From: Candidatus Latescibacterota bacterium
GTDB lineage: Bacteria > Latescibacterota > UBA2968 > GCA-2709665
NCBI GenBank assembly: GCA_965208835.1
Contig: OZ242358.1
Coordinates: forward strand, 4,320,001-4,384,000
DNA length: 64,000 nucleotides
Reading direction: 5' to 3'
Made by a program: the position numbers and the translations under genes. Numbering within the stretch: the first letter of the stretch is position 1; each line of letters starts with the position of its first letter. The notes under the pieces are model-generated. The model did no database searches. It was not told the origin of the DNA and saw nothing but the letters and a program-made list of their open reading frames with translations. This document shows positions 34,670 through 51,820 of this stretch, piece after piece.

Positions 34670-34755
34670 GCGGAAGTGGTGGAATTGGCAGACACGTCAG
34701 ATTTAGGATCTGGTGGGCATTGCCCGTGGGGGTTCGAGTCCCCCCTTCCGCACCA
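34670..34755 (+). tRNA. tRNA-Leu (anticodon TAG)
   Basis: GCGGAAG/CTTCCGC acceptor stem, D-loop GGAATTGGCAGAC, anticodon loop TTTAGGA, long variable arm, GGTTCGAGTCC, encoded CCA. Confidence 0.96.
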
Positions 34756-42121: not shown

Positions 42122-42976
42122 TCAGGCTGGCTCCTCTTCAGCCGGCGTCGCGGCTTGCTCGGGACCGGCCGGGGGTTCGAGCGGTGTCCCTTCGCGCTTT
42201 GCCATCTGATGAAACCATCGCAGCCCGATGACGGCCAGTGCGATACCGCTCGCAAACAGCCACCACGGAAGAAACTCCACAACTCCCCAATCCTCGATAG
42301 GACGGAATAGCTCCATACGCACCGAAATCAACGACAGAAAATTGTTCAGCGCGTGACCGAACAACGCGGGCAGCAACGAACCTGTCTGTACGACCCACCA
42401 GGCAAGAACAAGCCCCAGTATCAGGGCTCCCGTGAATTGCCAGGGATTCATATGCAATACGCCGAACAGCACCGCAGACCACACAATGGCACGCCACCGG
42501 GTACCGTGACCTAACAACCCGCCCAGAATAACGCCTCTGCAGAGGACCTCCTCAGTCAGTGGCGCTTGAATCGCGAGAACATAAAACGCGAGACCAAGAG
42601 GTGTTTTGCTCCCCATTAGATCGAGGAATATGTCGAGGTATACTTTGGGAACTGGAATCAGATATTGGACGAAGGTTGTAACGTTGGATATGACAATGCC
42701 GAATCCCAGGATCGAGACAGTAAGTGGGAGGTATATTCTCCACGGCACTGTCCTTAAAAGCAGGACGTCTGACCAGGGCCGACCGGATCGACGCTGTGCA
42801 TATAACACAAGGAGAGCGAAAATGGGGAGGCTTAGAATCCATCCCAGGTATTCGAAGATTCGTGTTTCATTGTCCGAGGCGGCGCCGAGGAAATGAAGCA
42901 CCATTCCCAATATGCCGGTTGCGACCACAAACAAGAAAATCAGCCAGACGGACTGCTTCAGATTCGGATACGCCAT
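42122..42976 (-). CDS. CPBP family (CAAX protease / Abi) intramembrane metalloprotease
   Basis: EEVLCRG, FGVLH, HALNN; starts MAYPNLKQ. Confidence 0.9.
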   Translation of the reverse strand: MAYPNLKQSVWLIFLFVVATGILGMVLHFLGAASDNETRIFEYLGWILSLPIFALLVLYAQRRSGRPWSDVLLLRTVPWRIYLPLTVSILGFGIVISNVTTFVQYLIPVPKVYLDIFLDLMGSKTPLGLAFYVLAIQAPLTEEVLCRGVILGGLLGHGTRWRAIVWSAVLFGVLHMNPWQFTGALILGLVLAWWVVQTGSLLPALFGHALNNFLSLISVRMELFRPIEDWGVVEFLPWWLFASGIALAVIGLRWFHQMAKREGTPLEPPAGPEQAATPAEEEPA

Positions 42977-43060: not shown

Positions 43061-43915
43061 TCAGACAGATTTCTCGGCCGCCGCCGTTACGACCGGTTCC
43101 GGTTCAGCCGGTGGATCCAGCGGTGTCCCTTCACGTTTTGCGATCTGATTGAACCACCACAATCCGATTATGGCCAGGACGATGCCACACGCGTTCAGCC
43201 ACCACGGAAAGGACACCAGGTTATTGAAATCATCCATCGGCCCGAATATCTCGTATCGCGCAATCGTCAATGCCAGGAAATTGTTGATCGCGTGCCCCGC
43301 GATGGCGGGCAACAGGGAACCCGTTTGAATCACCCAGAACGCAAACACAGACCCCAATACAAACGCAGCCGGAAATTGCCACGGGTTCAGATGGAATAGA
43401 GCGAAAAGCAGTGCGGACCAAAAAACGGCGAGGCTTCGGCGCTGGTTGGCCAACAGCCCAATCAGAATGACGCCCCTGAACAACACTTCTTCGATAAGTG
43501 GAGGCTGGACCGCCAGGTTATAAAAGGCGAAAGCGTAAGGCGTTTCCTTCCAAACCAGATCCCGGAATATCTCCATCATCCATTCAGGCATTGGAATCAG
43601 GTAATGTACACCGCGTTCCAAAATGGATATGGTGATCGACAAACCAACAGTGGCCACCGTAAGCGACGGGTAGAGTTTCCACGGTACCGTATTAAAGAGA
43701 AGGATGTCGGACCAGAGCCGGTCAGCTCGGCGCCGGGCGTAAACAATCACGAGAACGAAACTGACCAATATCGTTAGGGTCTGCACGTACGAATTGGACG
43801 CTAGATCATAGTCGAGTAATGTGCCCGAAATGGCAAGGAGCACCAACAATCCGAACAGGATCAGCAGTAATAGGGCCACCAGCCAGACGGATTGCTTCAA
43901 ATTCGGATACGCCAT
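43061..43915 (-). CDS. CPBP family intramembrane metalloprotease, tandem paralogue
   Basis: EEVLFRG, FALFH, HAINN; starts MAYPNLKQ with a GGAGG RBS. Confidence 0.9.
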   Translation of the reverse strand: MAYPNLKQSVWLVALLLLILFGLLVLLAISGTLLDYDLASNSYVQTLTILVSFVLVIVYARRRADRLWSDILLFNTVPWKLYPSLTVATVGLSITISILERGVHYLIPMPEWMMEIFRDLVWKETPYAFAFYNLAVQPPLIEEVLFRGVILIGLLANQRRSLAVFWSALLFALFHLNPWQFPAAFVLGSVFAFWVIQTGSLLPAIAGHAINNFLALTIARYEIFGPMDDFNNLVSFPWWLNACGIVLAIIGLWWFNQIAKREGTPLDPPAEPEPVVTAAAEKSV

Positions 43916-44475
43916 GTAATCCCTCCCTTTTGGGCGATCTGATGAACGTGGATCCAACGACCGTGCATAGAAGCACTGACGGTGGAAGTCCGTGCGTTTG
44001 CGGCTCTGACGAACGCCATGCAGCAGTCGCATTCGATGTACTGTAAAAGTGTCGAGCAGTCCTTTTCGAACTGCAAAATGCAAGCCAGATTTGAACAAGC
44101 GAATAACTTGATGTATATAAAGTATTTATTAAAGATGGTGCGGCACTTTGAAGAGAAGCGGATGTGTAGCGATATGCGTCTCGACGCTTCAAGGAAGATG
44201 CCGGTACGCCGGCGCGGACGAGAGATGAAACCCGTGTCTGCGGGCTTTTTTTGGTAGCTGGAACGCGCGCGTTAAAATGCGATGCATTTTGCATCGAATG
44301 GCGCATTCTGCAACCCCTGGCGCCGGCCGAATGACCGAGGCGTCGCGCGCCGAAGACAAATACCTGACACGGCGATGAATAGCGCTGACACGTGATGGAT
44401 TTTGGTGCGGACCAACAGGGTAGACCAAAAAAAATCCCGCTCCATCCCCCGCTTAATCCGTGATGAGCTACTTAG

Positions 44476-44642
44476 CGGCACCCCGGTTAAAGGGTGCCGG
44501 GCAGAGTCACCACTCACGCAGCTTTGAGGATGCGGGAAGGTCCTACGTATTCGCCGAGGACATGGGAGCTACCCTTGTCCCTTTGTGTCGGCTGTTTTAT
44601 TCGGTAGGCTACCCGACATACGGGTACTGCCCGAGTGGTGAC
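44476..44642 (-). ncRNA. candidate structured non-coding RNA (rod-like, 6S-like architecture, family unassigned)
   Basis: Terminal stem GTCACCACTC/GAGTGGTGAC, nested inner stems, 3' GC hairpin; begins 6-7 nt after a -10 box. Confidence 0.55.
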
Positions 44643-44648
44643 AACCGG

Positions 44649-44677
44649 AATATAGTTTCCGCTCTTGTGAATGACAA
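44649..44677 (-). promoter_or_regulatory. sigma70-type promoter for the candidate RNA
   Basis: TTGTCA-N17-TATATT; imperfect palindrome GCCCTTGT..ACAAGAGC over the -35 box. Confidence 0.6.
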
Positions 44678-44864
44678 GGGCTAATTTGCTTTTCTACAGT
44701 AACGGGTCCATCTGAGAGCGGCGAGGATGCGTACGTCGCTCACGTCGAAATACGGTATCAACGTCCTGATGCAACCAAGCCACATCAGGAGAATTGTGTT
44801 CACGCCTCGACGACTGAACTGTCTTCATTGGCGAAGGAACCCGCCACTGTGCCACGCCTCGTAT

Positions 44865-45365
44865 CTACTCCCGGCTCTCCTTCACGGATTCCCAGATCGG
44901 GTAATGAACTTCCGCCCGTTGAAACTCTCTCTGCAGCCACTGGCTGAATAAAATGTCGCGAATTTCGTTTGAAACGCGTTCGTCAAGGATTGCCGGAAAG
45001 TTCCGTTGCAGCATATACAACGCGAAACCGCCCGGCGCTTTCTCCGGTCCGAATAACTCACCTGGAGAGCCGGCAAACAGGCGGGCGGCAATGCCTTTGG
45101 GTAACTGTTCTCGCCGCACCCTGCCCAGATACCCGCCGGCAAGGCGGGTGCGCTCATCCTGTGAGAACTCCCGTGCCATTGCGCAAAAGTCGCCACCTTC
45201 CTCAATTGCCTGAAGTCCGATCTCATCGATCACGCCCCTGTCACTATGGAATATCCAGTTCACCTCCGCCTCGTCGAAATCCAGCGTGTGCTGCGCGAAG
45301 TACGGTTCGATCCTTCCGTCCACGACTTTGTCGGACAACGCACGCTCCAACCGTTTCGCCCGTGT
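44865..45365 (-). pseudogene. 5'-truncated parvulin-type peptidylprolyl isomerase of the kind found beside peptidase-ABC transporters
   Basis: GGDFCAMAREFSQD..T..AGGYLG, GELFGP, EIRDILFSQWL; in-frame stop just upstream, no good RBS, N-domain absent. Confidence 0.7.
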
Positions 45366-45644
45366 TCACGGACATCAAGCGATTACACAATGAGGTTGCG
45401 GTGACGACTGCGTGGCATGGTTCTCCCGTTTACTAACTGATGCGAGAACCGTGTACATCGAAATTGGGAGATTCTTATACGATTAATGGACACATTTCGG
45501 AGATAATTCAAGTGTTGGCGACCGCCTGAATTATTGTTATTTTGACTAAGATTCCGACCCAGAAACCGCTTCTAGATTGCCTTGTGGATGACTCTAACGA
45601 GAGAATCTCATTTCCGAGGAATTGAAAAACGGAGAGCTATCCAG

Positions 45645-48569
45645 ATGCCTCGTAACGACGAACCAACCATTAATCGAGCATTGGCCGAAGTATTGCGCGG
45701 AAGGAACGCACGTTGGCAAAACACTGGAGAGTTACTAGGTGCTGAGCAACTAGACATTCTATGCGAGGGCGGCAAACCAGATATCTTTGTGGATGACCCA
45801 TGCGGTGCCGCCGTCATCATCGAAACCGAGTTTTTTCCGGGTAATCAGGTCGAATTTGAAGCCCGCAGCCGTCTCGGAAACACTACCCAAAATACGGGAA
45901 AGACGATTGAACAGACAATTGCAGTTCGTGTACCGGACAGTCTAAGGGAGGTTAACCAATCTAAACTTAACGAAGCTATCGAGGCATCGACTCTTGAGTA
46001 TTGTCTGTATTCTCTGCGATTGTCATCGGGCGGCATTGATAGGTGGCCACCATCGGGTTGGTTAAGTGGTAATGTAGACGACCTCGCACAACTGGCTGAA
46101 ATTGCAGCGGTATCGGAGCGTGCAGTGACAACCAGTCTAGAGACTCTCGAACAGGGGATCCGAACTTGCGCCGGACGCTTTGAACAAGGGACCAGTGATC
46201 GACTTCAAGTAAGACAGCGGATCGCGCAATACCTACATCAATCAGAAGGTGAGCAGACTTGGCGGATGGCGATGGCAATTGTGACAAACGCTATAACGTT
46301 TCATACCACAATCGCTGGTACACACGGCGTGAAGACTGTGGACGAACTGCGTCTGTCAGACGGTAACTTGCCAAAAGCGACCGTACTTAGAGAATGGGAA
46401 CGGATCCTTCATGAGATTAATTATTGGCCTATATTCCACATTGCCAGGCAAGTTATGTTGGTCGTACCAAATGGTCTGGCATCCGAGATTCTCGACGAGT
46501 TGGCCGAAGTTTCCAGTAAACTTGCCGCCACCGGGATCACCCGTTCGCACGATCTATCGGGTCGGACTTTTCAGAGGCTGATTGCCGACCGTAAATTCCT
46601 AGCGACATTCTATACACTACCTGTTTCGGCAACGCTTCTAGCTGAACTTGCCATTGCAAGAATCAACATTGATTGGTCTAAAGCTATAGACATATGCCGC
46701 CTTCGAATTGGTGATTTAGCATCAGGTACCGGCACGCTCCTCGCGGCAGCGTACCACAGCGTTCTTGCTCGCTATCGCCGCCGAGGTGGGGACGACAGCA
46801 CGTTACATACAAAGATGATGGAGAATTGTCTTGTTGCGGCCGATATTATGCCGGCTGCTACTCACCTTACGACGTCGATGCTTTCGTCCGTACATCCAAC
46901 ACGTACGTTTCGGCGGACCAAAGTTCATACTCTTCCGTATGGAAAAGCGACCGAGAATCCGATTCTCCCGATCTCCCTAGGTTCACTTGATTTCTGCCTT
47001 GCCGCGGCTGGTAGAGACCTATTTGGGACACGAATCGTCGTCGCGAGTGGCAAGGGCGAAGACGAAGACTTGGAGAGTCGTGATACGGAAAATGGCGAAT
47101 TCACTCTTGCCCATAAATCGCTTGACCTGGTCATAATGAATCCCCCTTTCACAAGGCCAACTAATCATGAGCTATCGAATGTCCCGGTACCGTCGTTCGC
47201 AGGATTTGCAACCACTCATGACGAGCAACGCGCGATGTCAAAGCAACTTGGACGCATGAAACGAAAATTCGAACACGATGCCGCAGGTAATGGCAACGCA
47301 GGCTTATCCTCGAATTTCCTGGACCTCGCGCACCTGAAGTGCCGCGCAGGGGGGATACTGGCGCTCGTAATGCCTCTTTCTTTGTTAAAGGGAGATTCAT
47401 GGGCTGCGGGTCGTGGTCTGCTAGCAAGATGGTATCGTGACATAACGTTGGTTACCATCGCCGCGGCGAAGAGTAATGAAAAGTCGTTTTCAGCGGATAC
47501 GGGTATGGGCGAGGTACTGGTGATTGCACGCAAGAGCCATGCCCTAAACGCAAGACCAAGCGGAACGAAGGCGTTGTTTGTGACGTTACACAGAAGGCCA
47601 ACTGCGACAGCAGAAGCAATGGAGATCGCCCGCCACGTGCATCGGGAGTACGAAACGCGATCAAGCTCTACTCGAATCTTTGTTGGTGATCAAGTTGTCG
47701 GTACGACGTTCCGAACTGAAATGCGAAACGGAGGCTGCGGTGGTGTACGTGATCTAGAACTTGCAGAGATCGCCATAGCTCTCGTGTCCGGTAAATTAAG
47801 GTTACCAACTGTTAATTTGCCACTTAAAATGTCGACTATTCCCCTTGGTCAATTAGGATCTCGAGGTCTAGTCCATCGTGACATTAATGGCATCAACAGC
47901 GATAGATCTTTTCGAGGTCCATTTGAGATTTATCCCGCATCGCACCAACCCACTTATCCAGCATTGTGGCGCCATAACGCCGCGCGAGAAAGACAGGTGC
48001 TTCTGTTTCCTGATTCTGAAGGGCACATCAGGCCCGGAATGGAAGGCAAAGCCGCTGAGGTATGGGGTACTGCCAGTCGACTCCACTTCAATCTAGATTT
48101 TCGCCTTAATTCGCAGAGCTTAGCCGCAGCTGTAACCGAAAACAGGACAATTGGTGGAACGGCATGGCCAAATTTCCGAGCTAAGAATCTGGATCATGAG
48201 TCGGCAATCGTCCTCTGGTCAAATACGACATTGGGTCTGTTCTTGTTTTGGTGGAACGCTAACCGACAACAGGCCGGCCGAGCTAGATTGACCATTACGC
48301 AACTGCCGTCGCTATTGGTTTTGGACGCAAGGCAACTTTCGTCGACTCAGATCGCCACATCGGATTCACTGTTCGACGAGTTTGCGAATCTAATGCTCCT
48401 GCCTGCAAATGAAGCATTCTGCGACGAAGCGCGGATTGCACTTGATGAGAAATTCCTTGTCCAAGTATTGGGGTTGCCTCACTCGATACTTGAGCCGTTG
48501 GGAGTTCTACGAGACAAATGGTGCGCCGAACCGTCGGTGCATGGTGGCAAGAGTACGAAGATTTCGTGA
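45645..48569 (+). CDS. type IIG-like fused restriction-modification enzyme (PD-(D/E)XK nuclease, N6-adenine MTase, TRD)
   Basis: KPDIFV..IIETE at the N-terminus, ATFYT, DLASGTGTLL (motif I), MNPPF (motif IV), FSADTGMGE; ATG 45645 with GGAGA RBS. Confidence 0.8.
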   Translation: MPRNDEPTINRALAEVLRGRNARWQNTGELLGAEQLDILCEGGKPDIFVDDPCGAAVIIETEFFPGNQVEFEARSRLGNTTQNTGKTIEQTIAVRVPDSLREVNQSKLNEAIEASTLEYCLYSLRLSSGGIDRWPPSGWLSGNVDDLAQLAEIAAVSERAVTTSLETLEQGIRTCAGRFEQGTSDRLQVRQRIAQYLHQSEGEQTWRMAMAIVTNAITFHTTIAGTHGVKTVDELRLSDGNLPKATVLREWERILHEINYWPIFHIARQVMLVVPNGLASEILDELAEVSSKLAATGITRSHDLSGRTFQRLIADRKFLATFYTLPVSATLLAELAIARINIDWSKAIDICRLRIGDLASGTGTLLAAAYHSVLARYRRRGGDDSTLHTKMMENCLVAADIMPAATHLTTSMLSSVHPTRTFRRTKVHTLPYGKATENPILPISLGSLDFCLAAAGRDLFGTRIVVASGKGEDEDLESRDTENGEFTLAHKSLDLVIMNPPFTRPTNHELSNVPVPSFAGFATTHDEQRAMSKQLGRMKRKFEHDAAGNGNAGLSSNFLDLAHLKCRAGGILALVMPLSLLKGDSWAAGRGLLARWYRDITLVTIAAAKSNEKSFSADTGMGEVLVIARKSHALNARPSGTKALFVTLHRRPTATAEAMEIARHVHREYETRSSSTRIFVGDQVVGTTFRTEMRNGGCGGVRDLELAEIAIALVSGKLRLPTVNLPLKMSTIPLGQLGSRGLVHRDINGINSDRSFRGPFEIYPASHQPTYPALWRHNAARERQVLLFPDSEGHIRPGMEGKAAEVWGTASRLHFNLDFRLNSQSLAAAVTENRTIGGTAWPNFRAKNLDHESAIVLWSNTTLGLFLFWWNANRQQAGRARLTITQLPSLLVLDARQLSSTQIATSDSLFDEFANLMLLPANEAFCDEARIALDEKFLVQVLGLPHSILEPLGVLRDKWCAEPSVHGGKSTKIS

Positions 48570-48667
48570 TTGGTTACGAGTTCATTCCTGTTCAACGTTG
48601 GCAACCCTACTGATCAAATCCACACATATGTGTTTTTAAATCATAGTTCACCATCCAGAAAATTCCG

Positions 48668-48695
48668 TTGGCAAAAAAGTTCAAGTTGATATACT
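48668..48695 (+). promoter_or_regulatory. promoter for the SIR2-STAND gene
   Basis: TTGGCA-N16-TATACT with extended -10 TG; AAGGAGA RBS before the TTG start. Confidence 0.55.
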
Positions 48696-48724
48696 GAGCG
48701 CCTTTATTTTGCAAGGAGATAAAC

Positions 48725-51700
48725 TTGGATTTTCCTGACAATTTGATCGAGACGATAAGTTCCGGGAACTGCGTACTCTTCTTGGGCGCTGGAGCTGCAC
48801 GTGAAGCCGGTGCCCCCGTCGGCAATGAACTTGCGACACTACTGGCAGACAGATTCGAAAAGCACGATATCTCTACACATAATTTGCGAGAATTCGTAGA
48901 TGTATTAGAAACGACTTCCGGAGTTGATAGACAGGAAATCGACAAAGCAATTGTAGAAACACTTCAAAAAACATCACCGTCAAATGCCCATCTTTTTCTA
49001 CCGGGTTTTGTTTGGCAAGCAATTTTCACCACTAACTATGATCGATTAATCGAAATTGCTTACGACATTTATCGAACTTCGCGAGGTGAGCCACCCTTAC
49101 AAAGGTGCAATGTCGTAAATGGTCTCCAAGATCAAGTGCGGTTAGACAATCGTTCGTCCGTCAACCTGTACAAATTGCACGGCTGCATTTCGTCAATAGG
49201 ACAAGGCAATCCATTGGTTTTGTCTTCGAGAGATTATAGGAATACTCGCAAGAAACGTCAGCGGATGTTGCGGACATTGAAAATGTTAGCGGTAGAACAT
49301 TCTATTCTGTTCATCGGCTATTCGTTCGCGGATCAATACTTGAGTGAGTTGTTGGATGACATTCAGCAAGAATCTCCGTATCATCACCACCGAACGATGT
49401 TTCTTGTAATTCCCGAATTAACGGCGAGTTATGAAGAGTATTTCCAATCCCGGAACTTTAAACACCTGTCTGGAACATTTGGTCAATTTTGCGAAAGTCT
49501 TTCGGAGCTTGTCGAGACGGAGGCCAGAAAAAAAGCACTTACTTCGAGGATTTCTTCTGTACAGACTGTTGGAGATCGCTCAGCTTCAATTCCTACGAGT
49601 CTTAGAGTATCTTTAGACTCGCAATTGGAGATATTCCGACCCGAAGGCAGCTTTAATAGGAACCCAAAGAGATTCCTATCAGGTTTTCCACCATCCCTAG
49701 ATGACTTGAAGAGTCGGAATGATGTAACACGTGATCAACAATTCGAGCTGACCGAAAGTGTCCGAAAGGCACTGCGTACGGAGGCCTACCTTAGGCCAAT
49801 AGTGATGGTACTTGGAGCGGGCGGCGCTGGGAAGAGCACTCTTGCTGCAAGAGTTGCTTACGATATCGCAGATCAGCGGCTGGCGATTTCATGTCGGCTG
49901 AAGAATCCAGAGCAATGGAATATCGATGAAATTGTAAACTTTGCGGACAGGATTCAAGCACCGGTGCTCTTCGTTTTTGATGGAATTGAAGTGCGAAGTT
50001 GGCTTCGAGCGACAAAGGATCTTCGTCAAGCATTGACAGTCGCACGCGTAAACGCCACACTGTTGCTATCATGCCAAAAGGCAGTTTGGAACGAATGCAA
50101 AGCTAAGATGGGCAGCCAAGATATCGAGGTGTTTGATCTCCAGGATCGCCTCTCGGAAATTGAGGCCGCTAGCTTGATAGAAAAATTGACCGAAGCGAAA
50201 CTGTTGACCACGGACGCGAAGATACGCCAGCGGGAAGTCTCGAATATTGTAAATGAATGCGACGGTCATCTAGTGGCGGCGCTACTGCAAATCGTGCAAA
50301 GCGGCAAATTCAAGGCTATTGTACTCGGTGAATACGGGAATTTGTCGCATAGAGCCCAAAAGGCATATCAATTTGTCGCTCTACTACACCAACATCGCAT
50401 TTCGATTCCGGATTATCTGCTCAATTCGGTTAGCACCAACAATTGGGATATTTTCGTTGATCAAGTTATTCGCGAAGAGTCTGAGCTTGTAATTATACAA
50501 GACCTTGACGCCACATCCGGCAGACTAAGGTTCCGGAGTAGGCATCCTTTGATCGCAAGGACGATAATCGACGCCACTGTGCCAAAATTTGAAGACAGAG
50601 TGAGGATGTATCGGCGGATTTTCGCGGAGTTAGCGGCGTCAGCTGAAGACCGATCATTTGTTCTTACACTATTGACGACCGAAAGCGTTAGACGAGAGAT
50701 TCGCGAGGAACAGTATTTGGAAGAATTCTTCGATCGTGCGTTGGATCTCTTTCCCGATGATCGGGCTCTAATTCTTCAATTTGGGCGCCACGAAAACAAC
50801 GCAGGGAACTACGAAAGAGCGAGGGAGATTTTGGAATGGGGGAAAAGCATCAACCCAAGAGACAGTCACATACTTCACCAACTTGGCGTCTGTGCTCAGC
50901 GCCGCGCGAGGCGCGTGAAAGAGAAAATCGACCCTCTATTACATGACTCGTTGATCCAGGAAGCCAGGTATTATTTCCGGCAGGTCCAAGAAATCGATCC
51001 AATTTCACAATACGGATACGTCTCGGAGGCTAGGTTGGCTATAAACCTCGCTAGAAATGAAAAAGATCAGGTCCAGAAATTCGCGCTGATTTCTGAAGCA
51101 GAATCGATCATTCGTAGTGGCCTACTTCTTGTAAGGGAAGACGACCACGACATTTTGAGAGGTTGCGAGGCAGAACTATCCGACGTGGCCGGAGATACCA
51201 GTGAAGTGCTCCATCGACTGTGCGCTTTGGACGAAAAAGAAACCTTAGGATACGGGTCCTTATATCATCTTTGGGCAGCTTGTCTTGTTCGTGTGGGAAA
51301 TGTTGACGAAGCAATTGAAGTGATCAAGCGTGGCGTTAAGGACTTCCCGGGCGACGAGATGCTAATTCAGTTGATGCTTCAGATTCTCGAAGGATTTCTA
51401 TTTCGGGCTCGCAGTCGGGATGTTGCTAGTGAGTTTATCGGATATCTCCAGCGAGAGACAGAGAACATGAATATATGGATAGTCTTCCTTAAAGGCGTAG
51501 TGGAACTCTACGACACTCAATATAGGTTAGCAATGGAGTCATTCATGGAAGTGCGTCGACGTATGAACTCTCGAGCGTCAACGCGAATTCGGGATTATCT
51601 TAGGGACGAGTCCGGACACGAAATACAAAAGAGGGGGATCATTGAAATTGGACGATATGGGCGACCTTGGATAAAGGATGTAGGCACTGGTATTAAGATG

Positions 51701-51820
51701 CCCGTCGACAATTCTCAATTCTGGGAAAGGTCCGGCAAACCTCGCGATTGCGTCTTTCTGATGGGATTATCCCTTATGGGTCCAAGAGCATCGATAATCG
51801 AGAAATATCAGAATGGCTAG
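48725..51820 (+). CDS. SIR2-STAND NTPase-TPR protein (Avs/AVAST-like antiviral sensor-effector)
   Basis: LFLGAGAA, FTTNYD, YKLHG, LFIGYSFAD (SIR2); GAGGAGKS and VLFVFDG (P-loop); RSRHPLIA; TPR helices. Confidence 0.82.
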   Translation: MDFPDNLIETISSGNCVLFLGAGAAREAGAPVGNELATLLADRFEKHDISTHNLREFVDVLETTSGVDRQEIDKAIVETLQKTSPSNAHLFLPGFVWQAIFTTNYDRLIEIAYDIYRTSRGEPPLQRCNVVNGLQDQVRLDNRSSVNLYKLHGCISSIGQGNPLVLSSRDYRNTRKKRQRMLRTLKMLAVEHSILFIGYSFADQYLSELLDDIQQESPYHHHRTMFLVIPELTASYEEYFQSRNFKHLSGTFGQFCESLSELVETEARKKALTSRISSVQTVGDRSASIPTSLRVSLDSQLEIFRPEGSFNRNPKRFLSGFPPSLDDLKSRNDVTRDQQFELTESVRKALRTEAYLRPIVMVLGAGGAGKSTLAARVAYDIADQRLAISCRLKNPEQWNIDEIVNFADRIQAPVLFVFDGIEVRSWLRATKDLRQALTVARVNATLLLSCQKAVWNECKAKMGSQDIEVFDLQDRLSEIEAASLIEKLTEAKLLTTDAKIRQREVSNIVNECDGHLVAALLQIVQSGKFKAIVLGEYGNLSHRAQKAYQFVALLHQHRISIPDYLLNSVSTNNWDIFVDQVIREESELVIIQDLDATSGRLRFRSRHPLIARTIIDATVPKFEDRVRMYRRIFAELAASAEDRSFVLTLLTTESVRREIREEQYLEEFFDRALDLFPDDRALILQFGRHENNAGNYERAREILEWGKSINPRDSHILHQLGVCAQRRARRVKEKIDPLLHDSLIQEARYYFRQVQEIDPISQYGYVSEARLAINLARNEKDQVQKFALISEAESIIRSGLLLVREDDHDILRGCEAELSDVAGDTSEVLHRLCALDEKETLGYGSLYHLWAACLVRVGNVDEAIEVIKRGVKDFPGDEMLIQLMLQILEGFLFRARSRDVASEFIGYLQRETENMNIWIVFLKGVVELYDTQYRLAMESFMEVRRRMNSRASTRIRDYLRDESGHEIQKRGIIEIGRYGRPWIKDVGTGIKMPVDNSQFWERSGKPRDCVFLMGLSLMGPRASIIEKYQNG

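Follow-up and report, generated by a model that had tools for sequence, protein, structure and literature searches.

A folded RNA between a promoter and two CPBP genes

The window analyzed here is a 64,000-nt stretch of DNA from a Candidatus Latescibacterota bacterium (GenBank assembly GCA_965208835.1, contig OZ242358.1, positions 4,320,001 to 4,384,000), and our subject is an unannotated structured RNA within it that begins near position 44642 and precedes two tandem genes for CPBP (Rce1-like) intramembrane proteases. All coordinates are positions within this stretch, and both the RNA and the genes that follow it, here called its cargo, are read on the minus strand. The first CPBP gene (43061-43915; PF02517, E 5e-19) is the likely regulated cargo, and a second, paralogous CPBP gene lies at 42122-42976 (PF02517, E 1e-19). 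The original prediction, made from the letters alone, had placed a promoter-driven, rod-shaped RNA at 44476-44677 and had suggested that it could resemble 6S RNA, be a new small RNA (sRNA), or act as a cis-switch for the CPBP genes.

A sigma-70-like promoter is present at 44649-44677, exactly where it had been read, with a -35 element TTGTCA (44677-44672), a 17-nt spacer, and a -10 element TATATT (44654-44649), giving a predicted transcription start (+1) at 44642. It matches the consensus at 10 of 12 positions and is the sole promoter-like site on the minus strand within 43800-45700. A promoter-like site at an equal distance from the RNA 5' end was found at 40 of 63 family loci (the family is described below), compared to 1.2 expected at random positions.

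Folding of both strands favored the transcribed one. For 44470-44645 on the minus strand, the minimum free energy (MFE) was -79.6 kcal/mol, compared to -55.4 ± 4.6 kcal/mol for 200 dinucleotide shuffles, none of which folded as well (z -5.26), and the fold of the plus strand was weaker (z -3.9). The helices that had been drawn by eye were all recovered: an outer stem of 16 nt (44642-44627 with 44521-44506), a small hairpin inside the bubble (44626-44621 with 44615-44610), four nested stems (44608-44604/44546-44542, 44592-44588/44557-44553, 44580-44576/44562-44558, and 44574-44572/44566-44564), and a 3' hairpin (44499-44476).

We refer to the parts of the RNA as follows. The 5' strand of the outer stem is arm a (a1, the 5' decoy; 44627-44642), complementary to a' (44506-44521), a variable antisense barcode whose partner is either arm a or a downstream element, a2. 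Next comes the local hairpin 44626-44610 (feature 44609-44626), which overlaps a near-invariant block at 44619-44609, the 5' strand of a long-range helix that we call P1. Hairpin 1 (44542-44608) consists of three stacked stems; its A-rich internal loop (44601-44593 facing 44552-44547) and its apical stem-loop are both conserved. It is followed by b' (44526-44537), a conserved C/U-rich single strand that could serve as an anti-ribosome-binding site (anti-RBS) or as the 5' arm of a terminator-like helix. The 3' strand of P1 (44496-44504, partner 44617-44609) overlaps the 5' strand of the 3' hairpin (44476-44499), which has no U-run after it. P1 and the 3' hairpin have six bases in common and are mutually exclusive, and both covary nonetheless. 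Further downstream lie a2 (44460-44466), a degenerate copy of arm a that can form the helix 44513-44507 with 44466-44460, and b2 (44427-44449), a G-rich arm (44449-44435) plus a run of eight U (U8, 44434-44427), which can form a terminator-like helix with b'.

Conservation and covariation of the RNA family

Homologues were collected by a DNA search of 40 relatives, and a covariance model (A1) was built from 37 of the resulting sequences, leaving out three exact duplicates, one partial match, and one 5'-divergent copy. From 81 model matches, 63 non-identical members were aligned with MAFFT without any model (alignment A3), leaving out 8 near-identical orthologues, 8 other near-duplicates, and 2 short copies. 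The covariance-model E-values are rough, and since family members are related, the statistics given below overstate.

The DNA search recovered a full-length orthologue with 86-97% identity in 13 of 14 same-genus genomes. Shorter matches (69-84%), in the window's own genome and in a sister family, start almost exactly at the predicted +1, and paralogues are 70-78% identical. With A1, the own genome holds four copies, the window copy at 181.7 bits and the others at 141, 50, and 38 bits. Matches to A1 occur in 64 of 151 sampled genomes of the phylum, including 14/14 of the genus, with 1-14 copies per genome. One of the own-genome copies (G000:C1:1108144-1108274, minus strand; L172:1501-1631) is short, 131 nt, and lacks the apical part of hairpin 1. 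It lies ~10 kb from the 141-bit copy, precedes an fn3-domain protein, and is the own genome's best match (35.5 bits) to the Rfam model RF02221, to which we return below; downstream of it, a duplicated ~25-nt block stands beside two Shine-Dalgarno-like sites. It was also noted that metagenome-assembled genomes titled Gemmatimonadota (L066, L071, and L052) carry the orthologue at 185 bits plus paralogues and match same-genus Latescibacterota genomes, so that their public taxon labels look inconsistent.

Counting pairs on the alignments, we recovered a covarying, multi-copy family. On 80 distinct homologues, the whole originally drawn structure paired in 91% of cells and 41 of 46 pairs were changed on both sides, with slid controls at 36-45%, although this alignment was fitted to a model of that structure and so leans toward it. 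On the model-free A3, stems paired in 83-99% of cells, compared to 34-44% for slid controls, and 29 of the 36 pairs counted were doubly changed. The a:a' helix paired in 83-86% of cells with all 10 counted pairs changed on both sides; the stems of hairpin 1 paired in 86-99% of cells, with compensatory changes present; and the 3' hairpin paired in 86.6%, with 7 of 8 pairs doubly changed. The local hairpin paired in 79-80% of cells with little covariation.

The original prediction had also proposed an alternative pairing of the 5' end, 44633-44627 with 44504-44498. It can be formed by the window copy, but it is not conserved in the family, where 64.4% of cells pair compared to 62.9% in shuffles and just 6 cells are doubly changed. 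The conserved long-range helix is instead P1, 44617-44609 with 44504-44496, which had been missed and to which we were pointed by the alignment to RF02221. On A3, P1 pairs in 97% of cells and 4 of its 9 pairs are doubly changed; one of them is AU in 26 sequences, CG in 16, GC in 5, GU in 5, UG in 4, and UA in 3. The bases that are invariant across the 63 sequences belong to the P1 core and the A-rich internal loop of hairpin 1, and are mostly unpaired loop bases. Judged by its fold, promoter, and conservation, the RNA from 44642 onward is thus a real, conserved, and folded element, as had been supposed, with its transcription and its 5' and 3' ends predicted.

A 3' extension and a second fold

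The RNA had been drawn to end at 44476, which is too short, as conservation runs on to the U-run at 44434-44427. Across 14 orthologues, similarity continues through 44466-44460, the G-rich arm at 44449-44435, and the U-run, and then collapses; the G-rich arm and a run of at least 6 T are kept in 13 of the 14. An ATG at 44445, which opens a 57-codon frame, was rejected as a gene because the orthologues agree over its first six codons only, after which their frames differ.

When arm a is blocked, the window RNA refolds in silico, at -89.5 kcal/mol compared to -105.2 kcal/mol unconstrained. In the refolded rod, b' (44537-44526) pairs with the G-rich arm of b2 (44449-44435), a' (44513-44507) pairs with a2 (44466-44460), the 3' hairpin caps the structure, and U8 follows directly. 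In paralogues, the predicted second rod buries a Shine-Dalgarno sequence and start codon, and the conserved b' is complementary to ATG-CGN, with which many cargo genes start. When the 3' domains of the 63 members were folded in isolation, downstream pairing was predicted for a' in 54, for b' in 44, and for the two together in 42. In MFE folds of the full leaders (n = 63), 35 adopted a:a' compared to 26 with a':a2. The complementarity of b' to the region +38 to +113 averaged -11.8 kcal/mol, compared to -9.2 kcal/mol for windows picked at random within the locus (Wilcoxon 2e-6, a value that overstates the difference since the loci are related and not independent), and 20 of 63 loci fell within the best 5% of their own controls.

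Arm a and a' vary among copies and yet match each other within each copy. The own a:a' pairing reached -22.4 kcal/mol, compared to -9.8 kcal/mol with other loci, and the own partner was best for 22 of 23 distinct barcodes. The downstream element a2 matches its own a' as well (-15.1 kcal/mol compared to -11.6 kcal/mol for other loci at the 23 loci; 0 of 20000 permutations as low). A hand-picked set of 19 loci showed the same a2 specificity (0 of 20000 permutations), and the sense-strand control showed no difference. The matching of a to a', together with the locus-specificity of a2, implies that the central b'-a' block can pair either upstream, with a, or downstream, with a2 and b2.

Downstream genes and genomic context

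A homologous CPBP gene lies downstream of the RNA in the orthologous loci, with a Pfam match also for one of them that was scanned (L014). At the window locus, the start of the first CPBP gene is ~510 nt past the U-run, across a non-conserved spacer (43916-44426) that is ~330 nt shorter in three orthologues (L014, L017, and L020) and whose open reading frames (ORFs; 79 and 166 aa) are not shared. The longest-ORF call for this gene (345 aa, from TTG 44098) is overextended, the conserved start being 43915. The N-termini of the two tandem CPBP paralogues are nearly identical.

Across the family, with the window copy and its orthologues counted as one locus, the 600 nt downstream are occupied mainly by a same-strand ORF at 52 of 58 loci, usually ~30-130 nt away. 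A scan of 43 cargo proteins identified CPBP/Rce1-like proteases (window and orthologue), an outer-membrane beta-barrel, LRR, WD40, and Sel1 proteins, as well as subtilases, leishmanolysin-like (M8-like), dockerin, and fn3/Big_1 proteins and a MunI restriction enzyme. The cargo also includes many proteins assigned to no family that carry lipoprotein-type signal sequences, as judged by eye. The other own-genome copies precede an 82-aa protein of unknown function, an fn3 protein, and a heparinase-like protein.

Just upstream of the RNA, 45582-51820 on the plus strand has a lower GC content (0.43-0.52 compared to ~0.6 nearby) and holds two large genes, one for a 995-aa protein with no Pfam match and a putative NPPF-type methyltransferase motif recognized by eye, the other for a 1031-aa SIR2-like/STAND NTPase/TPR protein. 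The stretch looks like a defense island.

Relation to catalogued RNA families

Searching Rfam, as had been suggested, gave no family at its gathering score over the RNA region; at the gathering threshold, the whole window contains only a tRNA (34670-34752). A relaxed search of the region (751 nt) returned only sRNA-Xcc1 (RF02221) and a chance viral pseudoknot. No Rfam riboswitch model matched the locus in either search. The own genome's top two RF02221 matches are two other copies of the family, at 35.5 and 26.1 bits.

The core motif extends beyond the phylum. A 20-nt core motif was found in at least 120 stretches, including Acetobacteraceae, Sphingomonadales, Caulobacteraceae, Kaistia, Nocardia, and a Chlamydiae metagenome-assembled genome. 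Of 17 alphaproteobacterial loci with this motif, 13 scored 27.6-44.3 bits for RF02221. In the other direction, the Latescibacterota model spans its full length on 51 of 54 loci, with alphaproteobacterial matches of 21-54 bits, although these loci had been preselected by the 20-nt motif and the test was therefore not blind. The sub-threshold RF02221 scores, together with a shared P1 and hairpin 1 loop, place the family as a distant, enlarged relative of sRNA-Xcc1, by sequence and predicted structure, and not as a member by the Rfam criterion. The novelty claimed originally is thereby qualified: there is indeed no strong Rfam match, but the core is a sub-threshold relative of RF02221. In the literature that we searched, we found no description of the long leader form, nor of any Latescibacterota regulatory RNA.

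A two-state model for the leader

The cis-switch for the downstream CPBP genes, one of the options originally raised, is the one we favor, given the same-strand ORFs at 52 of 58 loci, the two exclusive folds, and the lack of another minus-strand promoter-like site before the CPBP genes. On balance, the RNA is probably a cis-acting, bistable leader of the C4/sRNA-Xcc1 type for the two CPBP genes. The data above directly support the helices with their covariation, the fact that they exclude one another, the a/a'/a2 triplet specific to each locus, and the shared orientation of the RNA and the genes downstream; which state is ON, the processing, and the trigger are what we infer. The proposed order of events follows the phage P1/P7 C4 design, which is matched by the arrangement of b'-a' opposite a2-b2.

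In this model, transcription would start from the RNA's own promoter at ~44642 and either end or be read through at U8 (44434-44427). The central antisense block, b' plus a' (44537-44506), would have two exclusive partners. The nascent leader would form state 1, the masked rod, first: with a' on the decoy arm a, the G-rich arm would remain free and no terminator would form, or, in paralogues, the ribosome site would stay open, and the cargo would be ON. A switch to the P1 fold with its Xcc1-like junction, perhaps with cleavage before 44617, would remove or displace arm a. By analogy with C4, the trigger that we prefer would be a cut at the P1 5' end, perhaps made by RNase P. In state 2, a' would pair with a2 and b' with the G-rich arm, and together with the 3' hairpin they would build a long rod ending in U8, turning the cargo OFF. 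This rod would act as a terminator at the window locus, and in paralogues it would cover the Shine-Dalgarno sequence and the start codon. The a/a'/a2 barcode would prevent cross-talk among the 1-14 cassettes of a genome.

Several observations weigh against this model. The window copy prefers the upstream a:a' state by ~16 kcal/mol in silico, and its a2 is only 7 nt long. A simple terminator scan did not call the long-range terminator at 44427-44449. Across the family, a':a2 is much weaker than a:a' (-15.1 compared to -22.4 kcal/mol), the own a2 is the best of its row at only 7 of 23 loci, and downstream pairing of b' is found in 44 of 63 members, not in all. The partner of b' lies within 12 nt of the called start at 27 of 50 loci, a figure affected by ORF calls that are crude in GC-rich DNA. 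P1 and a:a' cross each other and, if present together, would make a pseudoknot with a 1-nt linker. Both ends of the RNA are predicted, as is any processing. With ~510 nt between the U-run and the first CPBP start, the CPBP genes may possess a promoter of their own that we did not recognize. The formal kinship is distant as well: at the locus, RF02221 scores 24.6 bits (E 0.084 in the 751-nt search), below its gathering score of 53, it reaches E 10 at only 2 of 20 other Latescibacterota loci, and the C4 model RF01695 has no match in the own genome or the region at E up to 10. Finally, unpaired loop bases are very strongly conserved, as one would sooner expect of a sensor for a ligand or protein than of a plain antisense device.

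To our knowledge, sRNA-Xcc1 and C4-like RNAs have been catalogued while their function outside phage P1 is barely understood. The locus described here is a long form with a complete, readable circuit of promoter, decoy, scaffold, antisense block, target, and cargo. Its source is an uncultured phylum, in one genus of which it is conserved, and copies of it precede genes for proteins that are membrane-bound, secreted, or eukaryote-like. Should the two-state model be right, it would provide a testable mechanism for this leader family, which has been seen under other names in several organisms described in the literature; the locus-specific barcodes would let one genome run many copies without cross-talk, and it would offer a handle on how symbionts regulate host-interaction genes.

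Alternative readings

The strongest alternative, which we consider unlikely though deserving of attention, is a riboswitch-like or protein-binding sensor leader. Its Xcc1-like junction would bind a small molecule or protein, with a, a', and a2 as the expression platform; binding would stabilize P1 over the 3' hairpin and thereby choose between the two downstream rods. The distribution of invariant positions, mostly in unpaired loop bases and the P1 core, agrees with this, as do the presence of the same loop in the sRNA-Xcc1 consensus across phyla and the covariation of both P1 and the 3' hairpin though they are exclusive. The conserved core joined to an exclusive platform (P1 versus the 3' hairpin, a:a' versus a':a2) is what would generally be expected of a riboswitch. 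A coherent set of downstream genes for one ligand would be expected too, but the cargo is heterogeneous. Its bias toward surface and host-interaction proteins (CPBP, outer-membrane proteins, LRR, WD40, Sel1, subtilases, M8-like proteins, and lipoproteins) would suit one common signal, but it has no common pathway pointing to a metabolite. Moreover, a locus-specific barcode is not a riboswitch trait, and no Rfam riboswitch model matches.

A related and rather speculative idea, which we hold to be unlikely as well, is that the Xcc1-like core acts as a common sensor in bacteria ranging from Xanthomonas to Latescibacterota, with the invariant A-rich loop and P1 binding one cellular factor or ligand. 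If true, the sensor and the barcoded antisense arms would together make a portable OFF/ON cassette for bacteria that live with hosts, sponge symbionts among them. Whole sets of secreted, lipid-anchored, and eukaryote-like proteins could be coordinated in this way, with each switch insulated from its paralogues, and the cassette would represent a new class of modular RNA regulator beyond a C4 descendant.

It is more doubtful still that the RNA is a stand-alone trans-acting sRNA that ends at U8 and has targets elsewhere, the downstream genes being incidental. The own promoter, the terminator-like end, and the distance of ~510 nt from the window copy to the next gene would all be in line with this, and there are precedents in sRNA-Xcc1, published as trans-acting going by a title cited in PMC12189769, and in the C4-like RNAs of Acinetobacter, described as abundant stand-alone transcripts (PMC5320573). 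What speaks for a leader instead is that same-strand ORFs follow at 52 of 58 loci, usually at ~30-130 nt, and that the antisense block is complementary, locus-specifically, to its own downstream region; no trans target was found either, though no search was aimed at one.

We regard as very improbable a DNA-level repeat, that is, a miniature inverted-repeat transposable element (MITE) or mobile-element end in which the inverted arms are terminal inverted repeats and a and a2 a target duplication. Arm a and a2 are indeed direct repeats around a unit with inverted arms, and the family is multi-copy. In one relative (G040), four identical leader copies (L041-L044) stand at the start of a 2.7-kb exact repeat that also carries a gene for a 210-aa protein of unknown function and a 279-aa IS1-family DDE transposase, so that the leader-cargo cassette rides a mobile unit in that genome. 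However, the arms differ by compensatory changes and the internal helices covary, the orthologue keeps its place beside the CPBP genes across the genus, the promoter lies at a fixed distance, and the fold is stronger on the transcribed strand. According to the original prediction, many dispersed copies would have indicated a MITE; the copies found share 70-78% identity, short of near-identity, with compensatory differences in their helices, which is not the pattern that was meant.

The 6S likeness noted originally would make the RNA a short mimic of an open promoter by which RNA polymerase is sequestered, which is hardly credible: the rod with its internal bubble recalls 6S, and the slot is formally open as RF00013 finds no 6S anywhere in the own genome, but RF00013 has no match at E 10 in the region either, several divergent copies per genome (4 in the own genome, up to 14 elsewhere) each carry their own barcode helix, the cross-helix P1 and the leader context are conserved, and the bubble holds structured, sequence-conserved elements and not an open-promoter mimic.

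Comparison with known systems

With 6S RNA, the family shares the rod with an internal bubble and a similar size range, and it differs by the absence of a model match, its multiple copies, its leader context, and its cross-helix P1. Retron noncoding RNAs and IS110 bridge or seek RNAs were also considered, prompted by the inverted arms on either side, and set aside, since the neighbors are PPIase-domain and CPBP genes without a reverse transcriptase or recombinase, and the loops are conserved, not programmable. BLAST of the RNA against phage records gave only 30-nt chance matches (E 2), and against plasmid records no match.

The Bartonella RNAs Brt1-9 are described as highly structured RNAs of ~200 nt that occur in multiple copies, each lying immediately before a gene with little transcription, and have been proposed to be cis riboswitches and trans sRNAs at once (PMC5387305). 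Their cargo is one family of helix-turn-helix regulators, whereas that of the Latescibacterota RNAs is heterogeneous, and the two systems are likened here by description only.

With sRNA-Xcc1, the family shares the 9-bp P1 closing the junction (44617-44609/44504-44496), a hairpin 1 whose A-rich asymmetric internal loop can be aligned with the model consensus, and a C-rich tail beyond P1. It is longer (~165-216 nt compared to 87), with hairpin 1 enlarged by ~32 nt, and the b'-a' antisense block appears to take the place of the second hairpin. At the position of that hairpin, the only candidate is a 4-bp helix (88% paired, few double changes), and the space is occupied by b' and a'. The 5' decoy arm, the 3' hairpin, a2, and the terminator or RBS arm are all additional. 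The hosts differ too, as sRNA-Xcc1 is known from Xanthomonas campestris, integron cassettes, Xylella islands, and the APSE phage. It has been reported upstream of symE in Xanthomonas cassettes (bioRxiv 10.1101/2025.06.18.660453) and upstream of an ORF6N-protein gene in the APSE phage (10.1101/2020.03.17.996009). A Xylella island is described with five copies ~385 nt apart, the adjoining RNAs being annotated as C4 and isrK in another strain (PMC12189769).

The logic proposed for the leader is also that of C4. In the account of phage P1/P7 C4 in PMC5320573, b' occludes the ribosome site while a' binds just upstream for specificity, and RNase P releases the active RNA from a longer precursor by cutting where P1 begins on its 5' side; the same report describes multi-copy chromosomal C4-like RNAs with variable a' in Acinetobacter. 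The arrangement characteristic of C4, an antisense RNA against a site at or upstream of the ribosome site of a co-transcribed gene, is found here in the locus-specific a':a2 pairing and the pairing of b' with the start region. As in C4, the antisense RNA would be co-transcribed with its target, in the order b'-a' opposite a2-b2. At the foot of P1, the first base is G, mostly preceded by U, and a near-invariant CC lies two bases after P1 with a variable base between; this pattern fits C4-like cleavage by RNase P but is suggestive only. A c4-a1b1 motif with an upstream a1b1 element appears in a table of Weinberg et al. (PMC2864571), and the corresponding upstream target copy a1, our arm a, is present and covarying. 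The candidate for b1, 44619-44609, pairs with b' in 83% of cells compared to 82% in shuffles, which reflects conservation only, without covariation. There are also departures from C4. In the window copy, b2 is a terminator-like arm and not a working ribosome site. The a' and b' sequences, which sit in two hairpin loops in C4, form one contiguous strand. And where the phage RNA controls an antirepressor, the cargo here consists of surface or host-interaction genes.

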